Origin: Escherichia coli | GTDB lineage: Bacteria; Pseudomonadota; Gammaproteobacteria; Enterobacterales; Enterobacteriaceae | Reading direction: 5' to 3' (one strand) | DNA: 64,000 bases | NCBI RefSeq assembly: GCF_003790525.1 | Contig: NZ_CP033635.1 | In this document: in pieces, positions 3,276 to 37,318 of the stretch | Layout of the letters: each line of letters starts with the position of its first letter | How positions within the stretch are numbered: the stretch's first letter is position 1 | Notes under the pieces: generated by a model | Told to the model about the DNA's origin: nothing | The model's input: only the letters and a program-made list of their open reading frames with translations | Databases searched by the model: none | Position numbers and translations under genes: made by a program

Positions 3276-3427
3276 TGTTAATCCTTAATAACCTTTTTAT
3301 TCTTTGCCACGGGTTCCGTGGCGGGAGATTATGCCGCGTGAACATGAAGATTATTCCTGGGAATACTCGGAAATTTGTAAGTAATATTTAACTGCTCAAT
3401 ACATCTAACCTTTCAGGAGTCTTCGGT

Positions 3428-5761
3428 TTGGCCAACTCATCCTCACGATATTCCGTTCTGACTGCCGCCCACTGGGGGCCTATGCTGGTTGAAACCGACG
3501 GCGAAACCGTGTTTAGCTCGCGTGGCGCGTTAGCCACAGGAATGGAAAACTCCTTGCAGAGCGCGGTTCGCGACCAGGTTCACAGCAATACGCGGGTGCG
3601 ATTTCCAATGGTGCGCAAAGGCTTTCTTGCGTCACCGGAAAATCCGCAAGGCATTCGTGGGCAGGATGAATTTGTTCGCGTGAGTTGGGATGAGGCGCTG
3701 GAGCTTATTCACCATCAACATAAACGCATTCGTGAGGCTTATGGTCCGGCATCGATTTTTGCGGGTTCCTACGGCTGGCGTTCAAACGGCGTGCTGCATA
3801 AGGCCTCGACATTATTACAACGCTATATGGCGCTGGCAGGCGGTTATACTGGGCATCTGGGGGATTATTCGACCGGCGCGGCACAGGCGATCATGCCGTA
3901 TGTCGTGGGGGGCAGCGAAGTTTATCAACAGCAAACCAGTTGGCCGCTGGTGCTGGAACATAGCGATGTCGTGGTGCTGTGGAGTGCTAACCCACTCAAT
4001 ACGCTGAAAATTGCGTGGAATGCATCCGATGAGCAGGGGCTTTCTTACTTTTCCGCACTGCGTGACAGCGGGAAAAAGCTGATCTGCATTGATCCAATGC
4101 GATCGGAAACCGTCGATTTCTTTGGCGATAAAATGGAATGGGTGGCACCGCACATGGGCACCGATGTTGCGCTGATGCTGGGGATCGCCTATACGCTGGT
4201 GGAAAATGGTTGGCACGACGAAGCGTTTCTGGCGCGTTGCACCACAGGTTATGCCGTCTTCGCCTCTTATTTGCTGGGCGAGAGTGACGGAATAGCGAAA
4301 AACGCCGAATGGGCGGCAGAGATTTGTGGTGTTGGCGCAGCGAAAATCCGCGAGCTGGCGGCTCTTTTCCACCAAAATACCACCATGCTGATGGCTGGCT
4401 GGGGAATGCAACGTCAACAGTTTGGCGAGCAAAAGCACTGGATGATCGTCACGCTGGCGGCAATGTTGGGGCAAATCGGCACACCCGGCGGCGGTTTTGG
4501 TCTTTCTTACCATTTTGCCAATGGTGGTAACCCCACGCGCCGCGCTGCGGTGCTCTCTTCCATGCAGGGTAGCTTGCCTGGCGGCACCGATGCGGTGGAT
4601 AAAATCCCTGTTGCCCGCATTGTTGAAGCACTGGAAAACCCCGGTGGCGCATATCAACATAACGGTATGGACCGACATTTCCCGGATATTCGTTTTATCT
4701 GGTGGGCGGGCGGTGCCAACTTTACTCATCATCAGGATACCAATCGCCTGATCCGTGCCTGGCAAAAACCGGAGCTGGTGGTGATCTCTGAATGCTTCTG
4801 GACGGCTGCGGCGAAACACGCGGATATCGTTCTGCCTGCGACCACTTCGTTTGAGCGTAATGATCTCACCATGACCGGCGATTACAGTAATCAGCATCTG
4901 GTGCCGATGAAGCAAGTGGTGCCTCCACGTTATGAAGCGCGTAATGATTTTGATGTCTTTGCCGAGTTGAGTGAACGTTGGGAGAAGGGCGGCTATGCGC
5001 GGTTTACGGAAGGAAAAAGTGAGCTGCAATGGCTGGAAACGTTTTATAACGTTGCCCGGCAGCGCGGGGCAAGCCAGCAGGTTGAATTGCCGCCATTTGC
5101 TGAGTTCTGGGAAGCCAACCAGTTAATTGAGATGCCGGAAAACCCGGACAGCGAGCGGTTTATTCGCTTCGCCGATTTTCGCCGCGATCCGCAGGCGCAT
5201 CCATTAAAAACCGCCAGCGGTAAGATTGAAATCTTCTCGCAGCGTATTGCCGATTACGCTTATCCGGATTGCCCTGGGCATCCAATGTGGCTGGAGCCGG
5301 ACGAATGGCAGGGCAATGCCGAACCGGAACAGTTGCAGGTACTTTCTGCTCATCCGGCACATCGTCTGCACAGCCAGCTGAATTACAGTTCTCTGCGCGA
5401 ATTGTACGCGGTGGCAAATCGTGAGCCTGTCACCATTCATCCTGACGATGCCCAGGCGCGCGGCATACAAGATGGCGATATTGTTCGGTTGTGGAACGCA
5501 CGCGGGCAAATTCTTGCCGGAGCGGTCATTAGCGAGGGAATTAAACCTGGCGTGATTTGCATTCATGAAGGGGCATGGCCGGATCTGGATTTAACCGCTG
5601 ACGGTATTTGTAAAAACGGCGCGGTGAACGTTCTGACCAAAGATCTCCGCAGCTCGCGGCTGGGGAATGGCTGTGCGGGTAATACGGCGCTGGCATGGCT
5701 GGAAAAATACAACGGTCCGGAACTGACACTTACAGCGTTTGAACCACCGGCCAGCTCATAA
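3428..5761 (+). CDS. bisC: biotin sulfoxide reductase (molybdopterin oxidoreductase)
   Basis: 777-aa ORF beginning at TTG ([11 protein letters not shown]...), recognised as BisC; DMSO-reductase-family molybdoenzyme. Confidence 0.93.
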
Positions 5762-35248: not shown

Positions 35249-35329
35249 GTTTTCAGATAGCGCCTCTCTTAATGCCGCTGCGATCGGGTATACTCGGGCG
35301 GCAATCTGGGATTTCCGGGGGGAGACAAT

Positions 35330-37318
35330 TTGCGCGTAAGTCGCTCGTTAACAATCAAGCAGATGGCAATGGTGGCAGCCGTTGTCCTGGTGTTCGTTTT
35401 TATTTTTTGCACCGTTTTGCTGTTCCATCTGGTCCAGCAGAATCGCTATAACACGGCTACGCAACTGGAAAGCATTGCTCGCTCTGTCCGCGAACCCTTA
35501 TCTTCTGCCATTTTGAAAGGCGATATTCCCGAAGCGGAAGCTATTCTTGCCAGCATTAAACCGGCAGGCGTGGTCAGCCGTGCCGATGTGGTGCTGCCTA
35601 ACCAGTTCCAGGCGCTGCGTAAAAGTTTTATTCCAGAGCGTCCGGTGCCGGTAATGGTTACTCGCCTGTTTGAGCTACCGGTGCAAATCTCGCTGGGCGT
35701 TTACTCGCTGGAACGTCCGGCAAACCCGCAGCCAATTGCCTATCTGGTGCTACAGGCGGATTCCTTCCGCATGTATAAGTTCGTGATGAGCACCCTCTCA
35801 ACGTTAGTGACCATTTACTTACTTTTGTCGTTAATATTGACGGTGGCGATTAGCTGGTGCATTAACCGCCTGATTTTGCATCCATTACGCAATATTGCTC
35901 GCGAACTTAACGCCATCCCAGCCCAGGAGCTTGTTGGTCACCAACTGGCATTACCGCGTCTGCATCAGGACGATGAAATCGGTATGTTGGTGCGCAGTTA
36001 CAACCTCAACCAGCAATTGCTGCAGCGCCATTATGAAGAACAGAACGAAAATGCGATGCGCTTCCCGGTGTCGGATTTGCCGAACAAAGCCTTGCTGATG
36101 GAGATGCTGGAGCAGGTGGTGGCGCGTAAACAAACCACCGCGCTGATGATCATCACCTGTGAAACCCTGCGTGATACTGCGGGTGTGCTGAAAGAGGCGC
36201 AACGAGAAATTCTGCTGCTGACGCTGGTGGAAAAACTCAAATCGGTACTGTCGCCACGTATGATCCTCGCGCAGATTAGCGGTTATGACTTTGCTGTCAT
36301 TGCCAACGGTGTACAGGAACCGTGGCACGCAATCACTTTGGGTCAGCAAGTGCTCACTATCATGAGCGAGCGCCTGCCGATTGAACGTATTCAACTCCGT
36401 CCGCACTGTAGCATTGGCGTGGCGATGTTCTACGGCGATCTCACCGCCGAACAGCTTTATAGCCGCGCTATTTCTGCGGCATTTACCGCTCGCCATAAAG
36501 GCAAGAATCAGATTCAGTTCTTTGATCCGCAGCAGATGGAAGCAGCCCAACAGCGGTTGACGGAAGAGAGCGATATCCTTAATGCACTGGAAAATCATCA
36601 GTTTGCGATTTGGTTACAGCCACAGGTCGAGATGACCAGCGGTAAACTGGTCAGTGCGGAAGTGTTACTGCGTATCCAGCAACCGGATGGCAGTTGGGAT
36701 CTGCCGGATGGCTTAATCGATCGCATTGAATGCTGTGGGCTGATGGTTACCGTTGGTCACTGGGTGCTGGAAGAGTCCTGTCGACTGCTTGCTGCCTGGC
36801 AAGAGCGCGGCATTATGCTGCCCTTGTCGGTAAACCTCTCAGCGCTGCAACTGATGCACCCGAATATGGTGGCGGATATGCTGGAACTGTTAACCCGCTA
36901 TCGCATTCAGCCGGGAACACTGATTCTGGAAGTGACAGAAAGCCGACGTATTGACGACCCTCATGCTGCGGTGGCAGTCCTCCGTCCGCTGCGCAATGCC
37001 GGCGTTCGGGTGGCGCTGGATGATTTCGGCATGGGCTATGCGGGGCTGCGTCAGCTGCAGCATATGAAATCGTTGCCAATCGACGTACTGAAAATCGACA
37101 AAATGTTTGTTGAAGGCTTGCCGGAAGATAGCAGCATGATTGCTGCAATTATCATGCTGGCGCAGAGCCTGAACTTACAAATGATTGCCGAAGGCGTGGA
37201 GACTGAAGCACAACGCGACTGGCTGGCAAAAGCGGGCGTTGGTATTGCCCAGGGCTTCCTTTTTGCTCGCCCACTCCCTATTGAAATCTTCGAAGAGAGT
37301 TACCTGGAAGAAAAGTAG
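35330..37318 (+). CDS. pdeK: c-di-GMP phosphodiesterase PdeK (HAMP, degenerate GGDEF, EAL)
   Basis: ORF from TTG at 35330 (662 aa); alternative ATG starts at 35363/35369 would give about 651/649 aa; N-terminal TM and C-terminal EAL domain features. Confidence 0.9.

Follow-up and report, generated by a model that had tools for sequence, protein, structure and literature searches.

A conserved UUG as the probable start codon of bisC in Escherichia coli and other Enterobacteriaceae

In the stretch of Escherichia coli DNA that we analysed (64 kb, in the following the window), bisC, the gene of biotin sulfoxide reductase, is very probably translated from a UUG codon at position 3428 by ordinary Shine-Dalgarno-led initiation, and pdeK likewise from a UUG at position 35330. 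For bisC, the 30S subunit would pair with the AGGAG at 3415-3419 and the initiator fMet-tRNA would read the UUG 8 nt downstream, which would yield a cytoplasmic protein of 777 amino acids that begins with MANSSS. The N-terminus of this protein would lie close to the position at which the mature chains of the Tat-exported paralogues DorA, TorZ and MtsZ begin. Initiation of pdeK would follow the same route at its own UUG. The first-pass annotation of this DNA had proposed that bisC initiates at the TTG, and this proposal is borne out by the reading frame, by RefSeq, by conservation across species and by homology, all of which are computational lines of evidence. The bisC start region and gene comprise the following features.

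3389..3391, plus strand: in-frame TAA, the upstream boundary of the bisC frame
3415..3419, plus strand: Shine-Dalgarno sequence AGGAG of bisC, with an 8-nt spacer to the TTG
3428..3430, plus strand: TTG initiation codon of bisC, the first canonical start past the in-frame TAA and the start of the RefSeq CDS
3428..5761, plus strand: bisC coding sequence of 777 amino acids plus stop (2334 nt), based on the ORF translation, TIGR00509 and Pfam
3482..3484, plus strand: rival start, the first in-frame ATG of bisC (codon 19), with Met in 62 of 80 species

When reading the frame, we find that none of the 12 codons between the TAA at 3389 and the TTG is an ATG, GTG or TTG. The TTG is also the only canonical start codon between this TAA and the conserved N-terminus of BisC. 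The AGGAG had been placed about 10 nt upstream of the TTG, which is a fair description of a spacer that we measured as 8 nt. It had further been claimed that the first in-frame ATG lies well downstream. Such an ATG does follow downstream, at codon 19 (3482), but the gap is merely 54 nt; the second in-frame ATG is codon 39, at 3542. The sequence around the start (3368-3487) folds at -19.5 kcal/mol compared to a mean of -24.3 kcal/mol for shuffled sequences (z = +1.64). As the start region is thus less stably folded than the shuffled controls, we rejected an mRNA structure that occludes the Shine-Dalgarno sequence, and the site appears to be accessible. The bisC initiation site is an ordinary Shine-Dalgarno-led site with a strong Shine-Dalgarno sequence and good spacing, in which the codon is the weak element.

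The 425 nt that span the bisC start are matched in 5420 of 5426 complete E. coli genomes, with strain 2014C-3075 at 100% identity. In the RefSeq annotations of this strain and of K-12 MG1655, the bisC CDS starts at the position equivalent to 3428 and has a length of 2334 nt. The K-12 gene (WP_000013950.1, 777 amino acids) also has an identical context from -30 to +30; compared to this protein, the BisC of the window has a few amino-acid substitutions that are located farther downstream, whereas the start site is identical. An older gene model may have started at Met39 and comprised 739 amino acids; it plays no part in the analysis. In 2014C-3075, pdeK is named hmsP (biofilm formation regulator HmsP), and its CDS of 1989 nt equals the TTG-initiated ORF in length. 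The window and 2014C-3075 are not fully collinear, with an offset of about 1 kb at pdeK/hmsP (35330-37318). Since RefSeq already contains the same starts and CDS lengths, the TTG starts of bisC and pdeK are a rediscovery of accepted gene models and were already known. In the literature that we searched, no experimental N-terminus or initiation-site profile was found for BisC or PdeK, and the supplements of the TRAINSPOTTER N-terminomics study (PMC13245402) and of INRI-seq (PMC9825163) contain no entry for bisC, pdeK or yhjK.

To compare the start across species, we used one genome per species and here consider the 80 closest species listed, all of which are Enterobacteriaceae. Their bisC loci have an identity of 82-97% over the first 200 residues. 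The codon aligned to the bisC start is TTG in 74 of these loci, GTG in five (two Leclercia, one Pseudenterobacter and two Mangrovibacter) and TTA in one, whereas ATG and CTN are found in none. A GGAG is present 6-10 nt 5' of the start in all 80 loci, and the combination of an NTG start and a Shine-Dalgarno sequence is kept in 79 of the 80 species. A lone TTG triplet would be trivial by chance; it is the conservation of this one that goes beyond chance. As an internal control, we used 13 conserved internal Leu codons from this alignment: every one of them is represented by four to six synonyms, and TTG is never the majority. Furthermore, the first base of the start codon is a T in 74 of 79 species (frequency 0.94). 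At 54 four-fold sites of conserved residues in these genes, the major allele has a median frequency of 0.66, and only one of these sites is as conserved as the start T. Because this conservation is unlike that of internal Leu codons and four-fold sites, the TTG is best read as a start codon under constraint; in the alignment it behaves as such a codon would, and unlike a Leu codon or non-coding sequence.

The same alignment bears on the alternative that the true start of bisC is the ATG of codon 19 (3482), with a product of 759 amino acids, and that the TTG-initiated extension is an annotation artefact. In favour of this alternative, genes start with ATG more often than with any other codon, 62 of the 80 listed species have a Met here, and a G-rich run, CTGGGGGCCT, precedes the ATG. 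In the remaining 18 species, however, which include Citrobacter and Salmonella, the position is occupied by Ile, Val or Leu (codons ATT, ATC, ATA, GTN and CTT), and thus the conserved start cannot be the downstream ATG. The G-rich run is forced by the codons of an invariant H-W-G-P and would leave a spacer of 3 nt only. In the 80 listed species, the residues right behind the TTG are variable, and the subsequent block of 10 residues before Met19 is nearly invariant. As protein sequence, the nine residues that precede Met19 hardly differ between the species, whereas their synonymous sites do, which argues that they are translated.

Protein profiles and structures agree with translation upstream of Met19. 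The homology of BisC to solved structures, namely MtsZ of Haemophilus influenzae (7l5i) and DMSO reductases of Rhodobacter (1dmr, 1dms and 1eu1), begins at BisC residues 7-10. In the solved chains of 780 or 781 residues, which we take to be the mature proteins, BisC residues 9-10 find their counterparts at chain positions 7-8. The NCBIfam model TIGR00509 (bisC_fam) matches with 1095.3 bits (cut-off 1017.55) and has its first position at BisC residue 13, whereas BisC is below the cut-offs of the TorA equivalog models. The Pfam domain Molybdopterin_N covers residues 12-52. As these profiles and structures align from residues 7-13 onwards, a start at Met19 would truncate the N-terminal domain: it would delete the first seven positions of Molybdopterin_N and the first six of TIGR00509, and would also remove sequence that aligns to the solved structures. 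We consider a true start at Met19 extremely unlikely and retain the UUG at 3428 as the start of bisC.

The position of this start can be compared to that of exported relatives. BisC contains 14 residues ahead of the HWG motif and has no RRxFLK twin-arginine signal; judged from these residues, it would be a cytoplasmic, signal-less protein as described for bisC_fam. The Tat-exported DorA (1dmr/1eu1), MtsZ (7l5i) and TorZ-like proteins (P0154-P0205) have the catalytic fold and the family in common with BisC, and BisC residues 7-10 pair with residues 5-8 of the mature periplasmic enzymes. In contrast to BisC, these Tat paralogues carry a signal of about 40 amino acids with RRxFLK, and BisC starts about at their mature N-termini. 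When we searched for proteins beyond the Enterobacteriaceae, we found Tat-signal paralogues (TorZ/MtsZ-like) and no cytoplasmic BisC orthologues among the matches; the distant database matches have RRGFLKG leaders. BisC, which H2O2 and HOCl induce, has been described as the only cytoplasmic Dor/Tor-type S-/N-oxide reductase of E. coli (PMC12096835). Possibly, a Tat-exported ancestor turned into a cytoplasmic enzyme and the bisC start arose where its signal peptide had formerly been cleaved.

In E. coli, 4163 complete genomes share exactly the same 57 nt around the bisC start. Of 5401 genomes, about 1240 deviate from the window somewhere in 3400-3456, and the sampled variants near the start all retain the TTG. 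Two of the differences are common polymorphisms: a G to A change at 3431, which results in Ala2Thr of BisC in O157:H7, and a C to T change at 3421 in the spacer between the Shine-Dalgarno sequence and the start, which occurs in other E. coli lineages. A query with an ATG variant reached about 4480 E. coli genomes, each with at least one mismatch, and an ATG at the bisC start was found in none of them. One draft genome of a divergent lineage ('E. coli SCPM-O-B-8794', L003 801-803) has a TTA at the start, followed by at least 466 intact codons of the ORF. Such a TTA was found in no complete E. coli genome, and the complete genome closest to this draft (CUPF09) has a TTG that is annotated as the bisC start. 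The TTA is thus a singleton that reflects either a recent start-loss mutation or an error of the draft assembly.

It is also conceivable that bisC has dual starts, with the full-length protein made from the UUG and a minor isoform, shortened at its N-terminus, made from Met19 or Met39. E. coli genes commonly have internal initiation sites, in-frame ATGs are available at codons 19 and 39, and the ORF of the draft genome with the TTA is retained intact. However, neither ATG has a well-spaced Shine-Dalgarno sequence, Met19 is not conserved, and the truncated product would lack part of the conserved domain. Furthermore, the TTA is a singleton of a draft assembly whose closest complete relative has a TTG. 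We thus regard a second, internal start as very unlikely, and the single start at the UUG remains our preferred reading.

The yiaD-bisC intergenic region upstream of the start contains conserved elements of its own. Within 3304-3335, a dyad (GCCACGG-GTT-CCGTGGC, 3306-3322) is followed by GATTATGCC (3327-3335), and both are among the most conserved non-coding sequence in the 80 listed species. In a minus-strand reading, the dyad forms a stem of 5 bp that is paired in 149 of 150 cells, including eight G-U intermediates and five double (compensatory) changes; in the plus-strand reading, the G-U intermediates would become C-A mismatches. Because minus-strand pairing is kept through G-U and compensatory changes, the comparison points to a possible RNA hairpin in the 5' leader of yiaD, just downstream of a CATAAT element that resembles a -10 box. 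As an alternative, a promoter scan yielded the plus-strand sequence TTGCCA-17 nt-GATTAT as a predicted bisC promoter. The region also includes a 15-codon ORF (3344-3391, translated as MKIIPGNTRKFVSNI and a stop) that runs from an ATG at 3344 to the bounding TAA at 3389 and is in frame with bisC. In some Citrobacter genomes, the homologous sequence reads stop-free into bisC. Its translation seemed conserved, but we rejected this ORF as coding because Klebsiella, Raoultella and Enterobacter lack the ATG and because the conservation appears to be at the DNA level. The conserved GAAAATTCC, TTTGTAA and TAACATTGAACGG within 3344-3391 resemble promoter or operator DNA more than they resemble a coding sequence.

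For the second gene, pdeK, the corresponding features of the window are as follows.

35321..35324, plus strand: Shine-Dalgarno sequence GGAG of pdeK, with a 5-nt spacer to the TTG
35330..35332, plus strand: TTG initiation codon of pdeK (hmsP in RefSeq), based on the ORF and the 1989-nt RefSeq CDS
35330..37318, plus strand: pdeK/hmsP coding sequence of 662 amino acids plus stop, with a match to NF008807

The first in-frame stop upstream of pdeK is a TAA at 35270, and the TTG at 35330 is the first canonical start thereafter. The first-pass annotation had also noted that this ORF opens with a TTG and that in-frame ATGs occur at 35363 and 35369. Both observations hold: the ATGs are codons 12 and 14, and the residues RSLTIKQ ahead of them are conserved. 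The sequence R-S-L-T-I-K-Q-M-A is kept in the PdeK homologues of Leclercia, Salmonella, Citrobacter, Pantoea and Affinibrenneria and likewise in those of Baumannia, Photorhabdus, Xenorhabdus and Proteus. In E. coli, RSLTIKQ precedes Met12, and Met14 is replaced by Ala, Thr, Leu or Ile in several homologues. The TTG itself is kept in all five taxa other than E. coli that have the same N-terminus, including Salmonella, Leclercia, Pantoea and Affinibrenneria, and in these five taxa a GGAG or GAGA precedes it by 5-7 nt. The TTG together with the GGAG is conserved over three families of Enterobacterales. The protein is a member of the HmsP/PdeK family of c-di-GMP phosphodiesterases, as it scores 781.1 bits against the equivalog model NF008807 (cut-off 733), whose first position falls on PdeK residue 2, and it shows the architecture GAPES3 (residues 36-155), GGDEF (247-394) and EAL (415-648). 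In the hmsP homologue of Photorhabdus, an ATG that lies two codons farther upstream has been called as the start, and the TTG known from E. coli is still present at codon 3 (ATG AAA TTG CGC, L093 201-212); neither of these two codons is preceded by a GGAG. The start codon of pdeK/hmsP may thus have migrated between lineages.

UUG starts are known to result in lower expression than AUG in E. coli, and AUG tends to take the place of UUG and GUG starts during evolution (PMC5622118). In gamma-proteobacteria, UUG makes up about 1.3% of the ancestral starts, and switches from UUG to AUG are not significantly commoner than the reverse (PMC5622118). Given this frequency, two genes with a TTG start in a window of 64 kb are unremarkable. 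The expectation of a low translational efficiency from the bisC TTG fits the data: as E. coli initiates less strongly at UUG than at AUG, this start codon would cap the synthesis of BisC. That such a capped rate serves this cofactor-dependent enzyme is plausible, if speculative. A precedent is the adenylate cyclase gene cyaA of E. coli, whose UUG start gives higher expression once it is mutated to GUG or AUG (Reddy et al. 1985, cited after PMC5622118). As far as that citation describes it, cyaA is like bisC in that a Shine-Dalgarno-led UUG is located on a low-abundance enzyme, and in cyaA the weak codon limits the output. Unlike for cyaA, the support for a function of the weak codon in bisC comes solely from its conservation.

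Such conservation can be explained in two ways. The first is that the TTG is the bisC start and simply persists neutrally, as the level of a low-demand enzyme would be under little selection. This is in line with the UUG-to-AUG switches in gamma-proteobacteria, which are not significantly commoner than the reverse, and with the finding that only about three independent changes of the start codon occurred among the 80 listed species. All of these are T to G and none is T to A, which hints at selection for a weak start but is not significant on its own and concerns one gene family. Under neutral persistence, however, with drift among ATG, GTG and TTG, the first base of the start codon should mimic a synonymous site. 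Instead, its conservation exceeds that of 53 of the 54 four-fold sites, and the favoured ATG is observed neither in the 80 listed species nor in the approximately 4480 E. coli genomes reached. We consider neutral persistence quite possible, at somewhat below an even chance. The second explanation is that selection actively maintains the weak UUG of bisC throughout the Enterobacteriaceae. This is suggested by the lack of ATG in the comparisons, which is mildly notable, by the first base that exceeds all except one of the synonymous sites in conservation, and by the strong and unstructured Shine-Dalgarno sequence. Retention of TTG throughout the family without a switch to ATG suggests that selection acts on the start codon itself, beyond mere tolerance. 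We put active maintenance forward tentatively, as a reading that is possible and still rather doubtful. If it holds, the UUG could act as a throttle or as an IF3-sensitive valve on a cytoplasmic repair enzyme that depends on the molybdenum cofactor.

The start sites described here are correct and at the same time ordinary, and as such the finding matters little. Its practical consequence is that the current gene models of bisC and pdeK are right, and thus cloning and quantification should include the TTG-initiated N-termini; for BisC, these are the 18 residues ahead of the first Met codon, which include the conserved HWG strand. For the Enterobacteriaceae, the weak start that is found throughout the family in bisC would provide a modest case, amenable to testing, in which the choice of the start codon tunes translation.
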